64,000 nt of DNA from the NCBI GenBank assembly GCA_036555105.1, contig DATBMA010000023.1, positions 3,786 through 67,785 of the forward strand, in the 5' to 3' direction. Numbering within the stretch: the stretch's first letter is position 1; every line of letters starts with the position of its first letter. The notes below the pieces were generated by a model. It was not told the DNA's origin and searched no databases. It saw nothing but the letters and a program-made list of their open reading frames with translations. The position numbers and the translations under genes are program-made. Below are positions 8,340 through 58,389 of this stretch, piece by piece. Source of the DNA: Acidimicrobiia bacterium (GTDB lineage: Bacteria; Actinomycetota; Acidimicrobiia; Spongiisociales; ZC4RG35).

Positions 8340-10274
8340 GTGGCACTAGACCTTGTGTATCCCGACGGGGCCACGGCCGCCTTTCCGGACGGAACTACCG
8401 GGCGATCCGTGGCCGCATCGATCGGGCGACGGCTCGCCCAAGCCGCGGTCGCAGTGAGGCTCGATGGCGAGCTGTTCGACCTCGACCGACCGCTCCCGGG
8501 CAGTGGGAAGTTCGAGGTGGTGACCGACACCTCCGACGACGGCCGTTCGGTCCTCCGCCACTCCGCAGCGCACATCCTGGCGCAGGCAGTACTGGGGCTG
8601 TTCCCGGGAGCCACTTTCGCAATCGGTCCCGCCATTGCGGACGGCTTCTATTACGACTTCGACATAGGGCGCCCCTTCACCCCCGACGACCTGGCGGCTA
8701 TCGAGGCGCGGATGTCTGAGATCGTGGCGGGGGATCAGCCATTCGTCCGGGAGTCGGTGGGTCGCCAGGAGGCATTGGAGATCTTCTCCGACCACCCGTT
8801 CAAGCGAGAGATCATCGAAGGGGTCGAGCCGGGCGAGGTCGACGACGGCTCCGAAGTCACGCTTTACCGAAACCTCGACTTCGTCGACCTCTGCAGAGGT
8901 CCTCACCTGCCTTCGACCGGGAGGCTGGCTGCCTTCAAGCTCCTGCGCACGGCCGGTGCGTACTGGAGGGGGGACGAGAGTCGCCAGCAACTCCAGCGCA
9001 TTTATGGGACGGCCTGGGAGAGCGAGAAGGCACTCGGCGACTATCTGCTGAGGCTGGAGGAAGCCGAGAAGCGCGATCACCGCCGTCTGGGGCCGGAGCT
9101 CGACCTCTACAGCTTCCCCCGTGCGCTCGGTCCCGGGTTGCTCGTCTGGCATCCGCGCGGAGGCATGGTGCGCAAGCTCATGGAGGACCACTCGCGCCGC
9201 CTTCATGAGCGGTTCGGCTTCGAGTTCGTGAGCACTCCGCACGTGGCCCGCGAGGAGCTCTGGGAGATCTCTGGCCATCTCGGCTACTACGCCGAGAACA
9301 TGTACCCGGCCATGGAGGCCGACGACGGCGAGCGTTATCGGATCAAGCCGATGAACTGCCCAGGGCATATCCTCATCTATCAGAGCAAGAGCCGAAGTTA
9401 TCGGGACCTCCCGATGCGCCTCTCCGAGCTCGGCGCGGTCTACCGGTACGAACGGTCGGGGGTGGTGCACGGAGCATTGCGGGCTCGGGGATTCACCCAG
9501 GACGACTCCCATACTTTCTGCACCCGCGATCAGCTGCCGTCTGAGCTGGGGCGCCACCTCAAATTCGTCATGACCTGGCTGCGGGATTTCGGCTTCGAGG
9601 AGTTCGAGGCCGAGCTCTCGACCAAGCCCGACAATTCGGTGGGTGAGGCCGAGCTGTGGGAGGTTGCCGAGCGCGAGTTGGAGGCCGCCCTCAAGGATGC
9701 CGGCCTCGACTACCGGGTGGCCGCGGGCGAGGGGGCTTTCTACGGGCCCAAGATCGATGTGCACGTGAAGGATGCGATCGGGCGTAAATGGCAGATGTCG
9801 ACGGTGCAGCTCGACTTCGGTCTGCCGGAGCGATTCCAACTCGAGTACACGGCACCCGACAATCATCCGGCCCGGCCGGTGATGATCCATTGCGCCAAGG
9901 CCGGATCGATCGAACGGTTCATGGGGGTCCTGGTCGAGCACTACGCGGGCGCCTTCCCGATGTGGCTGGCCCCGGTGCAAGTCACGGTGGTGCCGGTGGC
10001 GGATCGCCATTGCCAGTACGCCACTCAAGTGGCTACCCAGCTCCGCGAGGCCGGGCTCAGGGTGGAGGTGGACGGCGGTGACGACACGGTTGGCGAGAAG
10101 ATCCGGCGGGCACTGACCCATAAGACCCCGGCCGTGCTGGTGACCGGGGACAAGGACGAGTCGGCTGGGACTGTCGGGATGCGCAGGTACGGTGAGGAGG
10201 AAGAGCGGCGCGGCGTGAGGTTGGATCAGGCGATTCAGGAATTGACCGACTCTGCCCGATCGCCCGGGGACTGA
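8340..10274 (+). CDS. thrS: threonine--tRNA ligase
   Basis: 644 aa; TGS/editing N-domain with HSAAHILAQAV, class II core motifs and a C-terminal anticodon-binding domain; GTG start. Confidence 0.95.
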   Translation: MALDLVYPDGATAAFPDGTTGRSVAASIGRRLAQAAVAVRLDGELFDLDRPLPGSGKFEVVTDTSDDGRSVLRHSAAHILAQAVLGLFPGATFAIGPAIADGFYYDFDIGRPFTPDDLAAIEARMSEIVAGDQPFVRESVGRQEALEIFSDHPFKREIIEGVEPGEVDDGSEVTLYRNLDFVDLCRGPHLPSTGRLAAFKLLRTAGAYWRGDESRQQLQRIYGTAWESEKALGDYLLRLEEAEKRDHRRLGPELDLYSFPRALGPGLLVWHPRGGMVRKLMEDHSRRLHERFGFEFVSTPHVAREELWEISGHLGYYAENMYPAMEADDGERYRIKPMNCPGHILIYQSKSRSYRDLPMRLSELGAVYRYERSGVVHGALRARGFTQDDSHTFCTRDQLPSELGRHLKFVMTWLRDFGFEEFEAELSTKPDNSVGEAELWEVAERELEAALKDAGLDYRVAAGEGAFYGPKIDVHVKDAIGRKWQMSTVQLDFGLPERFQLEYTAPDNHPARPVMIHCAKAGSIERFMGVLVEHYAGAFPMWLAPVQVTVVPVADRHCQYATQVATQLREAGLRVEVDGGDDTVGEKIRRALTHKTPAVLVTGDKDESAGTVGMRRYGEEEERRGVRLDQAIQELTDSARSPGD

Positions 10275-14866: not shown

Positions 14867-15741
14867 GGCACCGCCTCTTCTACCTGCTGCTGCAGGTGGC
14901 GAGCGCAGTGGTGGGAGTCCTACCGCTGTCCTGGGCACGGCGGGTGTGCTCGGCCATCGGCGCCCTCTCGTATCCGTTCGCCGGGGAGCGACGCCTGATG
15001 TCCAAGCGGCACATGGAGCGCATCGCCCCTGATCGCAAGGACCACGACGCCCTCGCCCGTCGAGTGTTCGCGAACTACGGAAGGCGATGGGCCGAGTCGC
15101 TGTGGCTGCGCCCCAGCCGGGTCCCCGGATTGGTGGCGGCCGCCCAGACCGAAGGATTCCAGAACCTGATCGACGCCAAGGCGAAGGGACGGGGGGTGAT
15201 ACTCGCCCTTCCACATCAGGGCTACTTCGAGCTGTCGGCTCCGGTAACGGCCACCCTCGGGCTCAAGGTGGTGGCGGTGGCCGAGAACCTCGAGAATCGC
15301 TACGTGCGCGACTGGTTCACGCGTATGCGCGAGGCCTTCGACATCCAGGTGAGATACGCCGATGACCCGGCCGTGATGCGGTCCCTCGTCTCCGACCTGG
15401 CCGCCGGCAAAGCGATCGCGCTCGTCTCAGACCGCGATCTCTCCGGGCGCGGCGTCGAGGTGGAGTTCTTCGGGGAGCGGACCACCCTTCCATCTGGACC
15501 TGCTGGGTTGTCGATCCGCACAGGGGCTCCGATCGTCCCGGTCGGCACATATTTCACTCCAGGTGCCAACCTGTTGATCGTCACACCCAGCATCGACATC
15601 CCGACCGAGGGAACGGTGGCAGAACGGACGGTTGCGATGACCCAGCAGCTCGCCAATCGTTTGGAAGACCTCATCAAACGCGATCCCAGCCAATGGCTGG
15701 TACTGCAACCCAACTGGCCATCCGACAGCCAACCGGCGTGA
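14863..15741 (+). CDS. patA: phosphatidylinositol mannoside acyltransferase (LPLAT/HtrB family, PatA-like)
   Basis: LPLAT domain with an H-x4-acidic motif (HQGYFE), ~290 aa; GTG start overlaps the pgsA stop (GTGA); position matches mycobacterial Rv2611c. Confidence 0.8.
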   Translation: MRHRLFYLLLQVASAVVGVLPLSWARRVCSAIGALSYPFAGERRLMSKRHMERIAPDRKDHDALARRVFANYGRRWAESLWLRPSRVPGLVAAAQTEGFQNLIDAKAKGRGVILALPHQGYFELSAPVTATLGLKVVAVAENLENRYVRDWFTRMREAFDIQVRYADDPAVMRSLVSDLAAGKAIALVSDRDLSGRGVEVEFFGERTTLPSGPAGLSIRTGAPIVPVGTYFTPGANLLIVTPSIDIPTEGTVAERTVAMTQQLANRLEDLIKRDPSQWLVLQPNWPSDSQPA

Positions 15742-37011: not shown

Positions 37012-37416
37012 ATGAGTCGCATCCTCGGAGTCGATCTGGGAGAGACTCGGGTTGGATTGGCGGTCTCCGATCCGGACGGAGTGATTGCCCTGCCGTTGGA
37101 AGTGGTCGAGAGAGGTGGGGCCGTCGGCCGGATCCTCGAGCTGGCGGCGGACCTGGACCTGAGCGAGGTGGTGATCGGACTCCCGGTGTCCCTCTCCGGC
37201 GAAGAGGGAAGGAGCGCGATCCGCAGTCGTGAGTTCGGGGCGGAGGTGGCAGCCGCCAGCGGCCTCCCGGTCCATCTCGTGGACGAGCGGTTCACAACCC
37301 GGATCGCCGATTCGGCACTAAAGGAACAGGGGAAGTCGGCGCGGGCGAGGCGTGGCTCCATCGATAGGGCGGCGGCCACCGTTATCCTCCAATCGTTCCT
37401 CGACCGCGCTCGATGA
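37012..37416 (+). CDS. ruvX: Holliday-junction-resolvase-like putative pre-16S rRNA nuclease YqgF/RuvX
   Basis: MSRILGVDLGETRVGLAVSD N-terminus and RNase H-like fold; ~134 aa. Confidence 0.9.
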   Translation: MSRILGVDLGETRVGLAVSDPDGVIALPLEVVERGGAVGRILELAADLDLSEVVIGLPVSLSGEEGRSAIRSREFGAEVAAASGLPVHLVDERFTTRIADSALKEQGKSARARRGSIDRAAATVILQSFLDRAR

Positions 37417-38495
37417 CACTCACCCCTTCCACTACCCGTGTTCCGCGCTGGCTGCGCGTTCTGGCGGCGGTCGCAGTGACCGCCATCGTCGTCGTGGTCG
37501 GAGCCACCACCCTGGGCAGGATGGTGGCCGACCGGGTGGGCAGCGGTGGCGGTGGCACCAACGTGACGGTGCTGCCCGGACAAGAAGTCGACGTGAGCAT
37601 CCCGCCAGGCTCCAGCGCCCAGGAGATCGCGGCGATCCTCGCCGCGCAGGGGGTGGTTTCGTCTTCGACGGAGTTCGAGCTCGCAGTCCGAGCCTCAGGC
37701 ACCGCCTCTCAGCTGAAGGCCGGCACCTACACACTGCTCACCGGCATGCAACCCGGCGAAGTGGTGACCCTGCTGGTCAGGGGTCCCGTCGCCGAGACGT
37801 ATCGCATCACTGTCCGCGAGGGGCTCCGAGTGTCGGAGATGCTCGATGTCCTCTCCGAGGCTTCGGGCATCCCGGTCGCTGAACTCGAGGACGCACTCAC
37901 CAATGGCACCGTCACGACGTCACTCCGCCAGATGCCGGCCACACCGGCGGTGGCCGATTGGGAAGGGCTCCTCTTCCCAGACACCTACGAGTTCCTGCGC
38001 ACGGCCACCGCCACCCAGATCTTGCAGAGGCTGGCCGAGACCATGGAGTCGAGAGTCGCCGCCATCGACTGGGCCCGCTTCCAGCAGGCCGGCTTCAACA
38101 AGTATCAGGGCATAGTCATCGCCTCGATGATCGAGTCGGAGGTGAGGGTGCCATCGGAGCGCCCCCTGGTCTCGAGCGTCATCCGAAACCGCCTTGACCA
38201 GGAGATGCCGCTCCAAATCGACGCCACCGTCCTCTATGCACTGGGGACACGGGACATCGCGGAGTTCGACAGCGACTTCGACTCGCCCTTCAACACCTAC
38301 AAAGTCGCCGGCTTGCCACCGGCGCCTATCTCCGCCCCCGGCCGGGCCTCCCTCGAAGCCGCGGCATCGCCGGCGGCGAGCGATTACCTCTTCTACGTCC
38401 TGTCGGCCGCCGATGGGAGCCACACCTTCACCACCAACTACGCCGACCATCAGCAGGCCGTCGCCCAAGCCAAGGCCGACGGAATCATCCCCTGA
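37413..38495 (+). CDS. mltG: endolytic murein transglycosylase MltG (YceG-like)
   Basis: N-terminal TM, LysM-like region and a YceG domain (LLFPDTYEF, ...SMIESE); ATGA overlap with ruvX. Confidence 0.9.
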   Translation: MTLTPSTTRVPRWLRVLAAVAVTAIVVVVGATTLGRMVADRVGSGGGGTNVTVLPGQEVDVSIPPGSSAQEIAAILAAQGVVSSSTEFELAVRASGTASQLKAGTYTLLTGMQPGEVVTLLVRGPVAETYRITVREGLRVSEMLDVLSEASGIPVAELEDALTNGTVTTSLRQMPATPAVADWEGLLFPDTYEFLRTATATQILQRLAETMESRVAAIDWARFQQAGFNKYQGIVIASMIESEVRVPSERPLVSSVIRNRLDQEMPLQIDATVLYALGTRDIAEFDSDFDSPFNTYKVAGLPPAPISAPGRASLEAAASPAASDYLFYVLSAADGSHTFTTNYADHQQAVAQAKADGIIP

Positions 38496-39277
38496 CCATC
38501 CGGCTGCTCCTGGTCGGCGATCCGGTAGATCACTCCCTCTCGCCGATCATCCATCGGGCTGCGATGGAGCTCACCGGGCTGGATGGGGAGTACACCAAGC
38601 AGCGGGCCGACGCCGAAGTGCTGGGGCAGGCAATCAGCCGGCTGCGGGCGGGAGAGCTCGATGGCATCAACGTGACGATGCCGCTCAAGCGGGCCGCCGC
38701 CGGGTTGTGTGACCGGCTCGACCCCCAAGCTCAGCGCACCGGCTCGGTCAACACCATCGTGCGAGTAGGAGATCGGGCGATCGGGCACGACACCGACGTG
38801 ATCGCACTCAAGCTGGCGCTGGAGGAGATGCCCGAGACCGCTCCGCTGCTGATCCTCGGAGCGGGCGGTGCTGCATCGAGCGCGGCCGTGGCCGCTGGTA
38901 GTCGCCCCACCTACGTGGCCGGACGCCGCCCTGGCGCCCTGCAGGCACTGGCTGAGGCCGCCAATCAAGCGGCGGCCGAGGTGCCTTGGGGGGTGCCGGT
39001 GGTAGGGGCGGTTGTGGTCAACGCCACCCCATTGGGAATGGCGGGGGAGGCGCTTCCACCGGGGTTGTTGGCCGTGGCCGGCGGGCTGGTCGACCTCGTC
39101 TATGGGCCGAAGGTGACCCCGGCAGTGGAAATGGCCGCTGACCTGGGAATTCCCGCGGTGGACGGCCTGAGTCACCTGGTCAGGCAGGCGGCCGCCGGAT
39201 TTCAGCTGTGGACCTCCCGGGCCGGGGTCGAGCAAGCCATGATGGAGGCCGCGAAAAGAACTCAAGAGGTTGGTTGA
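38492..39277 (+). CDS. aroE: shikimate dehydrogenase (start codon unresolved; CTG proposed)
   Basis: Essential substrate-binding motif LLLVGDPVDHSLSPIIHRAAMELTGL lies upstream of the first in-frame ATG (38564); no ATG/GTG/TTG between it and the upstream stop; CTG 38492 overlaps the mltG TGA (CTGA). Confidence 0.75.
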   Translation: MTIRLLLVGDPVDHSLSPIIHRAAMELTGLDGEYTKQRADAEVLGQAISRLRAGELDGINVTMPLKRAAAGLCDRLDPQAQRTGSVNTIVRVGDRAIGHDTDVIALKLALEEMPETAPLLILGAGGAASSAAVAAGSRPTYVAGRRPGALQALAEAANQAAAEVPWGVPVVGAVVVNATPLGMAGEALPPGLLAVAGGLVDLVYGPKVTPAVEMAADLGIPAVDGLSHLVRQAAAGFQLWTSRAGVEQAMMEAAKRTQEVG

Positions 39278-39320: not shown

Positions 39321-40412
39321 ATGTCCCTGACCGGGCATCTTGATGTTTTTGCTCTCGAGGAGGTGCTTCGCCTCCTGGCGCGTTCGTACAAGACCGGCTG
39401 CCTGCGGGTGGACGCCGGCGAGGTGCACGGACGCGTCTACCTGTCCTCCGGGACGATCTCGTTCATCACAGCTGGAACAGACGACGATCTGAGGCGCCAA
39501 CTGCTTCGCGCGGGCGTGGCGGACGACGAGAGCCTCCGGGCAATGGAGCGGGGCTCGAGCTGGAGTGATCCCAGCACGACCCGCAGCCAGGGGCTCAGCA
39601 ACTTCGTCAGGGAAGAAGTCGTCGAGAGCCTCTACCGGATCCGCCGCCCCGGACGCGGCCAATTCGTCTTCAATGCCGACGTCGCGCCCCGCTACCCGAT
39701 AGGGCAGAGCTTCGACGTGGAGATGACGATCGCGGACGCCGACCGTCGGGCTGCCGACTGGGCAGACATCGAGGCAATCCTGCCTTCGGTGGAGCTTCCG
39801 ATTCGCATCGTGACTGATGTCGAGGGCGACATCACCGTCTCCCCCTTCGCCTGGAAGCTGATCTCCGCCATGGGCGGCATCGCCACCCCGGCCGGGCTCG
39901 CCGACGGCATGGGCCTCAGCCGATTCGTAGTGGCACGCGAGGTTGCCGATCTGATGCACCGCTCGCTGCTCGAACCTGCCGTGCAGACGGCCGAGCATGA
40001 GCATGAACCTGAGCGGGAGCCCGAGGCCGAGGCCGAGCCTTACTCTTACGAGACCTTCGCCCCGGCAGCCACCGCGGACACGGCCTTGCAGGAGACCTAC
40101 GGCGACGAGCCGATCGCGGACACCGCACCGGCCTTCGAGGAGTCAAACCAGGCCGAGGAGACCCAGGCCCCGGCGGCAGGTGTCGACGGTGGTTGGTGGG
40201 TCGAGCCGGACCGCCCAAGTGGTCAGGCGGCCGACGAGAGCGCACCCGAAGGCCAGGGCGAGGGCACCCCGCTGGCCGATGGCTTCCTCGAGAGGGTCTT
40301 CGCCCAGCTCGAGGAGACCGACGCCGAAGGCACCGCCGAGCAGCCCAGCATCGGACACGGGTTCCTCAAGCGGCGCCGGATGAGCTCGCTCACTCCAGAA
40401 GACCTCACCTGA
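39321..40412 (+). CDS. DUF4388-domain protein with long acidic low-complexity C-terminal tail
   Basis: N-terminal LTGHLDVFALEEVLRLLARSYKTGCLRVDAGEVHGRVYLSSGTISF matches DUF4388/PATAN-like; C-terminal half is highly acidic (HEHEPEREPEAEAEP...); AAGGAGC RBS before ATG 39321. Confidence 0.6.
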   Translation: MSLTGHLDVFALEEVLRLLARSYKTGCLRVDAGEVHGRVYLSSGTISFITAGTDDDLRRQLLRAGVADDESLRAMERGSSWSDPSTTRSQGLSNFVREEVVESLYRIRRPGRGQFVFNADVAPRYPIGQSFDVEMTIADADRRAADWADIEAILPSVELPIRIVTDVEGDITVSPFAWKLISAMGGIATPAGLADGMGLSRFVVAREVADLMHRSLLEPAVQTAEHEHEPEREPEAEAEPYSYETFAPAATADTALQETYGDEPIADTAPAFEESNQAEETQAPAAGVDGGWWVEPDRPSGQAADESAPEGQGEGTPLADGFLERVFAQLEETDAEGTAEQPSIGHGFLKRRRMSSLTPEDLT

Positions 40413-52010: not shown

Positions 52011-52029
<19 letters not shown>

Positions 52030-57210: not shown

Positions 57211-58389
57211 ATGCGGCGCTGGTACTTCGCTTCTGAATCGGTCACGGAGGGTCATCCCGACAAGGTGGCAGACGCCATCTCCGACTCGGTTCTCGATGCC
57301 GTCCTGGCTCAGGATCCGATGGGCCGGGTCGCCTGTGAATCAATGGTCACGACCGGTGTCGCCGTCGTCGCCGGAGAGATCTCTTCGCAGGCGGTGATAG
57401 ACATCGAAGCTCTCACCAGGTCGACAGTTGCCGACCTTGGCTATGACTTCGACCCAGAGTTCTCGGCCGACACGATACGTGTCCAGTCGCTCGTCCACAG
57501 CCAGAGCCCGGACATCGCCGCCAGCGTGACACGATCCCTCGAAGATCGGTCTGGCTCCCAGGATCCCCTTGATGCGCTGGGGGCCGGTGACCAAGGGATC
57601 ATGTTCGGATTCGCGGTAGACGAGACGAGCGAACTGATGCCACTTCCCATTCAACTCGCCCATCGCCTGGCCGAGAGGCTCGCCGCGGTGCGGCGTGAGG
57701 GGTTGCTCGGCTATTTGCGCCCCGATGGCAAGACCCAGGTGACGGTCGAGTACGAAGGAGACCGGCCGCTTCGAGTCACCTCGGCTCTGATTTCCGCCCA
57801 CCACGCCCCCGGGGTCGACTCGAAGGCGATGGCCGCTGATCTCCGGGCCGAGGTGGTCGAACGGGTCATACCTGACGACCTGCTGGCAGGAGATGTCGCC
57901 GTTCTCATCAACCCCTCCGGCAACTTCGAGGTCGGCGGGCCTCCGGCCGACACCGGCCTCACTGGCCGCAAGATCATCGTCGACACCTATGGGGGATATG
58001 CCCGTCACGGTGGGGGTGCCTTCTCGGGGAAGGACCCCACCAAGGTGGATCGATCGGGGGCCTATGCCGCCCGCCACGCCGCCAAGAACGTCGTGGCCGC
58101 GGGTCTGGCAAGGCGATGCGAGGTTCAGCTGGCATATGCCATCGGCCAGGCCGCCCCCTTCTCCATCCATGTCGACACCTTTGGCACCGCCAACATCGCC
58201 CCCGAGCGCCTCGACAAGTTGGTGGGCGAATACTTCGACTTCCGGCCGGCCGCCATCCTCCAGCGCCTGGGACTGCGCGCGCCGGTCTACCGACCAACCT
58301 CCGCTTACGGTCACTTCGGTCGCCCGGGCTTCCCATGGGAGTCAACGGAGGAGGCCGAGGCCCTCGCCGCAGCCGCCGAACAGTTCTGA
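57211..58389 (+). CDS. metK: S-adenosylmethionine synthase
   Basis: FASESVTEGHPDKVAD ... GGGAFSGKDPTKVDRSGAYAARH. Confidence 0.95.
   Translation: MRRWYFASESVTEGHPDKVADAISDSVLDAVLAQDPMGRVACESMVTTGVAVVAGEISSQAVIDIEALTRSTVADLGYDFDPEFSADTIRVQSLVHSQSPDIAASVTRSLEDRSGSQDPLDALGAGDQGIMFGFAVDETSELMPLPIQLAHRLAERLAAVRREGLLGYLRPDGKTQVTVEYEGDRPLRVTSALISAHHAPGVDSKAMAADLRAEVVERVIPDDLLAGDVAVLINPSGNFEVGGPPADTGLTGRKIIVDTYGGYARHGGGAFSGKDPTKVDRSGAYAARHAAKNVVAAGLARRCEVQLAYAIGQAAPFSIHVDTFGTANIAPERLDKLVGEYFDFRPAAILQRLGLRAPVYRPTSAYGHFGRPGFPWESTEEAEALAAAAEQF

Follow-up and report, generated by a model that had tools for sequence, protein, structure and literature searches.

The aroE gene of an Acidimicrobiia bacterium, encoding shikimate dehydrogenase, is probably translated from a CTG codon that overlaps the stop codon of the preceding gene, mltG, as CTGA. 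The junction lies in a 64,000-nucleotide (nt) stretch of contig DATBMA010000023.1 (assembly GCA_036555105.1, positions 3,786 to 67,785 of the forward strand), called the window below, and coordinates are those of the window unless a related locus (L001 and so on) is named. The first canonical start codon of aroE lies downstream of the sequence encoding the substrate-binding loop, and relatives that lack a canonical start ahead of the conserved fold also carry a near-cognate codon exactly on the mltG stop. The elements of the junction are the following.

37413..38495, + strand: mltG (YceG-family lytic transglycosylase) coding sequence, from the open reading frame (ORF) list; Pfam YceG, 267 bits; C-terminus aligns with the DG(V/I)LP* of relatives
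38479..38485, + strand: weak Shine-Dalgarno-like ACGGAAT, 6-8 nt upstream of CTG 38492; duplex energy -3.5 kcal/mol
38492..39277, + strand: proposed aroE (shikimate dehydrogenase) coding sequence, 261 codons plus TGA
38492..38494, + strand: proposed aroE start codon CTG, forming CTGA with the mltG stop, in the register of the ATGA of L033 and the GTGA of L037
38498..38500, + strand: second-best candidate start, ATC, 2 nt past the mltG stop; aligns with the Met of MRLxxxGDP homologues
38510..38512, + strand: CTG used by the NCBI protein HEY7703614.1 (255 amino acids (aa), MVGDPV...), judged unlikely as a start
38516..38545, + strand: substrate-binding loop (Ser-x-Ser), G-D-P-V-D-H-S-L-S-P, encoded upstream of the first canonical start
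38564..38566, + strand: ATG, the earliest canonical start in frame and the one chosen in the JGI and Logan gene calls (237 aa, P0001); truncated protein

An apparently intact aroE without a canonical start ahead of its conserved N-terminus

The mltG gene ends in GCC AAG GCC GAC GGA ATC ATC CCC TGA (...A-K-A-D-G-I-I-P*, TGA 38493-38495), and base 38492 doubles as the third position of its last Pro codon (CCC). Over the junction the aroE frame reads CAT CCC CTG(38492) ACC(38495) ATC(38498) CGG(38501) CTG(38504) CTC(38507) CTG(38510) GTC(38513) GGC(38516) GAT CCG GTA GAT CAC TCC CTC TCG CCG, which translates from CTG 38492 as L-T-I-R-L-L-L-V-G-D-P-V-D-H-S-L-S-P. The initial annotation of this DNA had claimed that aroE has no ATG, GTG or TTG ahead of its binding motif. 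This was borne out, as the frame between TGA 38195 and ATG 38564 holds 123 open codons and none of these three, and the conserved AroE N-terminus (RLLLVGDPVDHSLSP) is encoded upstream of that ATG; the positions it had given for the mltG TGA, the in-frame CTG codons, ATC 38498 and ATG 38564 were all correct. The only alternative starts of translation table 11 near the AroE domain are CTG 38492, ATC 38498, CTG 38504 and CTG 38510.

Judging from its sequence, aroE looks intact and functional. The Pfam model Shikimate_dh_N (PF08501) matched with 87.6 bits against a cut-off of 27, with model positions 1-83 aligned to residues 7-89 counted from CTG 38492. Strand beta-1 and the H-S-x-S-P loop would therefore be missing from a protein that began at ATG 38564. 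The NCBIfam aroE score was 136.9 bits from ATG 38564 and 166 bits when the 24 upstream codons were included (+29 bits), and these 24 codons contain no stop and no frameshift and encode the invariant G, P, S and P as well as the conserved H and S. The best match in the PDB was 1wxd, the Thermus thermophilus shikimate dehydrogenase (MLRFAVLGHPVAHSLSP...; E=8e-34), residue 2 of which pairs with residue 3 of the window protein (Ile 38498). When 46 sequences were aligned, the window AroE retained all 32 invariant columns, among them G9, P11, S17, P18, K66, N87, D102, G123 and G125, with H14, S15 and G126 conserved in at least 90% of the sequences. The Ser-x-Ser substrate loop, the catalytic Lys/Asp pair and the Gly-rich NADP loop are all present, the roles of these residues being those that we take over from established knowledge of the Escherichia coli and T. 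thermophilus enzymes. The protein is a divergent AroE: its top model matches are all shikimate dehydrogenase, its scores lie below the NCBIfam equivalog cut-offs (166 bits vs 200.2 and 164.9 vs 252 for TIGR00507 and NF001319), and Pfam SDH_C also falls below its cut-off (23 vs 25.8). The gene stands in a shikimate-pathway context, with the order ruvX-mltG-aroE-DUF4388-prepilin peptidase-chorismate synthase found in L001 and L002 (99.9% identical to the window) and again in L087-L090.

A sequencing or assembly error, indel or substitution, could conceal a normal ATG or GTG start, and one base change, C38492 to A or G, would give back a canonical ATGA or GTGA. We find this hardly credible. Bases 38400-38599 are identical in six independently assembled contigs from six samples (L001-L006; Logan assemblies of two SRA runs, and four JGI metagenomes), contigs that differ from the window elsewhere by single-nucleotide polymorphisms and small indels (99.8-99.97% identity). 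The 237-aa protein called from ATG 38564 occurs unchanged on 12 contigs, these six among them, and the NCBI protein HEY7703614.1, from a metagenome-assembled genome (Acidimicrobiia bacterium, 255 aa, same 90% cluster), agrees with the window sequence. In addition, MltG ends at the family-typical ...DG(I/V)(I/L)P* and AroE begins in its usual register, no indel being required for either. Because the junction is base-identical in six independent assemblies, an assembly indel is effectively excluded. Of the two explanations offered by the initial annotation, rare CTG initiation or a sequencing indel, the second thus falls away on these assemblies and the first, a CTG within CTGA, gains support from the positional homology and recurrence described below.

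Start sites and mltG-aroE junctions in relatives

Close relatives of the window AroE are scarce: no protein of 60-95% identity was present in a collection of 5.8 billion proteins, where the next match after the 100% cluster was at 53-55%, and a scan of GTDB gave matches of at most 55%. We fetched 86 loci and found the GxP motif in 79 relatives. A canonical start lies at most 17 codons upstream of the motif Gly in 79/79 of these, and the window lineage alone has none; in L040, L041 and L054 the sole canonical codon in that stretch is an internal Val GTG at -1 or -2 (codon positions are counted from the Gly). The mltG gene is directly upstream of aroE in 60 loci, window included, with junctions of three classes.

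Genes separate or otherwise overlapping: 29/60 loci
Canonical 4-nt overlap: 24/60 loci (14 GTGA, 9 ATGA, 1 TTGA)
No canonical start at least 4 codons upstream of the Gly: 7/60 loci

Two of the canonical overlaps, those of L033 and L037, match the window register exactly (start at -8, stop at nt -23 to -21), and the other 22 are in other registers. The MltG C-terminal context is near-identical in these two loci and in the window.

L033: GGA CGG AGT CCT CCC ATG ACG
L037: CGA CGG GGT CCT CCC GTG AGC
Window: CGA CGG AAT CAT CCC CTG ACC

Since the differing base is the third position of the last Pro codon of MltG (CCA, CCG or CCC), a change to C is silent in mltG. Alignment to orthologs, which the initial annotation had put forward as a check, thus placed a canonical ATG or GTG at the homologous -8 position of L033 and L037, and with six assemblies in agreement the CTG found there in the window is very unlikely to be a base error. 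Among the relatives as a whole, the start falls most often at -6, as ATG or GTG. The closest relative, L008, has a GTG start at -7, and the codon homologous to ATC 38498 is an internal Ile.

The window and the six other loci in which no canonical start precedes strand beta-1 share one property: a near-cognate codon lies exactly on the mltG stop in 7/7 (6 CTGA, 1 ATAA). The five CTGA loci besides the window belong to other Acidimicrobiia lineages.

Window: CTGA, register -8
L087: CTGA, register -9
L091: CTGA, register -11
L054: CTGA, register -12
L088: CTGA, register -12
L040: CTGA, register -12
L041: ATAA (ATA over a TAA stop), register -19

Compared with the overlap rate of 24/53 in canonical loci, this gives a Fisher p of 0.007, a value that ignores phylogeny and counts the sisters L054 and L088 separately. 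The CTGA loci are scattered on a neighbor-joining tree of AroE, which points to at least four independent CTGA origins. L054 and L088 both have CTGA at an AroE identity of only 71%, suggesting that a CTG start can persist. A strong, well-spaced Shine-Dalgarno precedes the near-cognate codon in five of the seven loci (GAGGAGGG-N9-CTG in L054, L088 and L091, GAGGGAG in L040 and GAAGGGG in L041), providing independent support that those codons are real starts. At the junction of L041 (2440-2450 of that locus), GAAGGGG stands 6 nt upstream of the ATA, and the mltG TAA is at nt -56 to -54 relative to the aroE motif Gly at 2518. The possibility that CTG junctions are compensated by a stronger Shine-Dalgarno was not retained, the means of -8.0 vs -6.3 kcal/mol at CTG and canonical junctions being a trend only (Mann-Whitney p=0.25, not significant).

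Which codon starts aroE in the window

Arg at -5 was found in 36/40 homologues and Leu or Phe at -4 in 40/40, both forming part of strand beta-1. Because Arg(-5) and Leu(-4) are conserved, the start should lie at -6 or further upstream, which leaves CTG 38492 (-8) or ATC 38498 (-6) and argues against CTG 38504, CTG 38510 (NCBI) and ATG 38564 (JGI and Logan). We favor CTG 38492 as the main start, and consider it the probable one from these comparisons, because it is the positional homologue of the ATGA and GTGA starts of relatives, because overlap with the stop is a feature of all the other near-cognate loci, and because the ATC is internal in L008. The codon is unpaired in the predicted fold, which is unremarkable (z=-1.13).

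In the model that we propose, functional aroE would be translated mainly from CTG 38492, a near-cognate start overlapping the mltG stop as CTGA. Ribosomes finishing MltG at UGA 38493-95 would stay on the mRNA and re-initiate with formylmethionyl-tRNA one base upstream, at the CUG, just as they would at the many ATGA and GTGA junctions of the window and of related genomes. AroE would then start with M-T-I-R-L-L-L-V-G-D-P, so that (f)M-TIRLLLVGDPVDHSLSPIIHR or TIRLLL... is the N-terminus expected from CTG 38492. Such a junction could have originated when one A or G, in the third, synonymous position of the last Pro codon of MltG, mutated to C, a change silent for MltG and weakening for the aroE start, and the weaker start may be tolerated through ribosome delivery by coupling and/or a low demand for AroE. 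We infer the use of CTG rather than ATC 38498, re-initiation as the route and Met as the initiating residue. De novo initiation at CUG and AUC in E. coli reaches ~1-2% of that at AUG (bioRxiv 10.1101/063800); either the need for AroE would be low or re-initiation more tolerant.

Several observations weigh against CTG 38492. The Shine-Dalgarno before it is weak, at -3.5 kcal/mol vs a window background mean of -4.4, and the support from strong Shine-Dalgarno sequences stems from relatives and not from the window locus; relatives carry ACGGGGT or GAGGAGG where the window has ACGGAAT. Three of the near-cognate loci (L087, L088 and L091) were found via truncated gene calls and make a biased sample, the unbiased GTDB set giving 3/50 loci. 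In every near-cognate relative, the internal Val GTG at -1 or -2, which gene callers use, could in principle start aroE; the window is the cleanest case, because GTC and not a Val GTG stands there. Our literature search yielded no experiment in bacteria in which start-codon choice was shown to be looser during re-initiation. Finally, ATC 38498 has an equal claim as a near-cognate codon: it follows the stop by 2 nt and lines up with the Met of MRLxxxGDP, the N-terminus seen most often in homologues.

A start at this ATC (M-R-L-L-L-V-G-D-P), alone or alongside CTG 38492, would keep both Arg(-5) and Leu(-4) and would fall at -6, where relatives most often have ATG or GTG. ATC is a near-cognate start of table 11 that has been validated for Deinococcus dnaA (PMC2830850), and the GGA element lies 14 nt upstream of it. 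However, the homologous ATC of L008 is an internal Ile following the GTG start, ATH codons are absent from this region in all six other loci without a canonical start, which have in common the codon on the stop, and the spacing of ATC 38498 to the sole Shine-Dalgarno-like element is long. Taken together, initiation at ATC 38498 appears unlikely. Shine-Dalgarno strength proved uninformative as a discriminator, CTG 38492 and ATC 38498 sharing one weak GGA.

The deposited starts, CTG 38510 (NCBI, 255 aa) or ATG 38564 (JGI and Logan, 237 aa, with MELTGLDGEYTK as the N-terminus given by the truncated call), would yield an AroE without beta-1 and, for ATG 38564, also without Ser-x-Ser; such a gene would be inactive or in decay. 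In favor of these starts, no canonical start other than ATG 38564 is available, and both codons were picked by gene callers. This choice carries little weight, because the same gene callers truncated aroE in L089, L090 and L092-L095 despite canonical starts upstream. Moreover, the 24 codons before ATG 38564 are intact and conserved as described above, CTG 38510 drops Arg(-5) and Leu(-4), and no Shine-Dalgarno precedes either codon. We hold these starts, and with them a decaying gene, to be improbable. Even less can be said for a programmed -1 slip of tRNA-Pro on C-CCC-UGA (38489-38495) that would produce an MltG-AroE fusion. The aroE gene is indeed in the -1 frame relative to mltG, and CCCC before a slow-to-decode stop permits re-pairing of the P-site tRNA-Pro. 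We rejected this very improbable route because the CTGA loci do not share the slip site (T-CCC-TGA in L087, C-TCC-TGA in L040), C-CCC-UGA is no X-XXY-YYZ heptamer, no significant downstream structure that could be stimulatory is predicted (z=-1.13), and relatives have plain ATGA or GTGA start/stop overlaps here. Fusion to MltG, a protein anchored in the membrane by its N-terminus and with an extracytoplasmic YceG domain, would put an NADPH-dependent enzyme outside the cell.

Canonical 4-nt overlaps occur elsewhere in the window as well. The initial annotation had counted ~19 ATGA/GTGA junctions in the array, which is too high; a crude gene finder based on GC content at third codon positions gave ~12-14. 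Several of these bona fide ATGA/GTGA starts have no Shine-Dalgarno, and coupling without one seems common in this genome. The ruvX-mltG junction at 37413-37416 is a canonical ATGA with essentially no Shine-Dalgarno (+0.4 kcal/mol), and none precedes the GTGA starts at 15738 and 32834 either. Other CTGA junctions between a stop and an in-frame CTG of co-directional ORFs are found at 10271-10274, 52026-52029 and 58386-58389. None of the three needs a CTG start, because a canonical start is nearby at each: a TGATG at 10272, an ATG 16 nt upstream of the second junction and an ATG 52 nt upstream of the third.

Relation to known start sites and coupled genes

A near-cognate start on aroE would be of an already documented kind, because CTG and ATC starts of housekeeping genes have been proven in Deinococcus. 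In that genus, Baudet et al. 2010 (PMC2830850) used N-terminal proteomics to demonstrate the CTG start of rpsL and the ATC start of dnaA, and a CTG start was inferred for Deide_03051 since a canonical start would delete conserved fold elements (PMC2830850). As in these three genes, aroE has no canonical in-frame start ahead of its conserved N-terminal residues, and it carries a near-cognate codon where relatives start; the argument is the same as for Deide_03051. The near-cognate CTG or ATC of the Deinococcus genes is conserved across related genomes. Unlike aroE, for which we have compared sequences alone, rpsL and dnaA were confirmed by N-terminal mass spectrometry, and the Deinococcus starts are not described as lying on a 4-nt stop/start overlap.

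Overlaps of this geometry are known from ATGA and GTGA junctions, which couple translation by termination-reinitiation, as in trpB-trpA (Huber et al. 2019, PMC6728339; Huber et al. 2023, PMC10666635; reviewed in PMC12548453). The mltG and aroE genes resemble these systems in being co-directional operon genes whose stop and start share an NTGA (CTGA 38492-38495), and the CTGA is positionally homologous to the ATGA and GTGA of relatives. The codon in the overlap is CTG, however, whereas the cited surveys consider ATG, GTG and TTG, and our literature search found no report specific to CTGA junctions. The E. coli thrS-infC junction (UAA GGU AUU) likewise has a near-cognate start within a few nt of the upstream stop, and re-initiation contributes to its expression (Osterman et al. 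2013, PMC3592434). It differs from the aroE case in having a 3-nt spacer in place of an overlap and in that the infC AUU is the sensor of an autoregulatory loop of initiation factor 3, no such logic being evident for aroE. Termination-reinitiation in caliciviruses and influenza B tolerates non-AUG codons next to the stop (PMC2793014), but that process relies on eukaryotic 40S subunits and a tethering element (TURBS) and serves as an analogy only.

Switches to CUG are rare in general, at 2/61,358 ancestral AUG starts, 1/5,080 GUG starts and 1/2,468 UUG starts (PMC5622118). At the mltG-aroE junction they recur, always with the codon on the upstream stop; such repeated use of CTGA (and ATAA) at the stop/start overlaps of one gene pair was not found in the searchable literature. 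One possible reading, which we advance tentatively, is that re-initiating ribosomes at 4-nt overlaps may select starts less stringently than de novo initiation does, so that a housekeeping gene could exchange its AUG or GUG for good for CUG, and perhaps for AUA. Start-site specificity during re-initiation is listed as an open issue in a 2025 review (PMC12548453). If relaxed selection holds true, the Acidimicrobiia mltG-aroE junction would be a natural repeated experiment, with at least four CTGA origins and one ATAA origin, all on the stop, and it makes testable whether termination-reinitiation relaxes bacterial start-codon discrimination.

Consequences for annotation

The direct consequence of these findings is a corrected aroE annotation, the wider hint of relaxed start selection being testable and as yet unproven. 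All three deposited versions of the protein (237 aa from JGI, 237 aa from Logan and 255 aa from NCBI) are probably truncated at the N-terminus, and the NCBI pipeline had already resorted to a CTG start, the one at 38510. The N-terminus is called at or after the GxP motif in ~14/120 of the closest database homologues; P0010, P0016, P0018, P0021, P0029, P0033, P0065, P0082, P0090, P0105, P0118 and P0120 have such short N-termini. Pathway reconstruction and structure modelling from entries of this kind would begin from a defective N-terminus. Six of the nine loci inspected (L089, L090 and L092-L095) were discarded as further examples of near-cognate starts, being plain gene-caller truncations with a canonical start upstream. 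At the other extreme of length, the homologue P0095 has 422 aa, ~160 residues more than the rest, and could be a fusion or a mis-call.

Neighboring genes

Between 34374 and 42376 the gene order of the window is alaS-ruvX-mltG-aroE-DUF4388-prepilin peptidase (A24)-chorismate synthase, and it is the same in L001/L002 and, elsewhere among Acidimicrobiia, in L087-L090. Two genes, DUF4388 and the peptidase, thus separate aroE from aroC. For the DUF4388/PatA_N gene (39321-40412 of the window, 3758-4849 of L002), the start is ATG 39321, behind a good AAGGAG Shine-Dalgarno, and not the overlapping TTG 39270 of the ORF list. The length of its product differs by strain (361, 363 or 364 aa among the window, the six contigs read and two further contigs), and six-base indels somewhere in these loci separate the strains.

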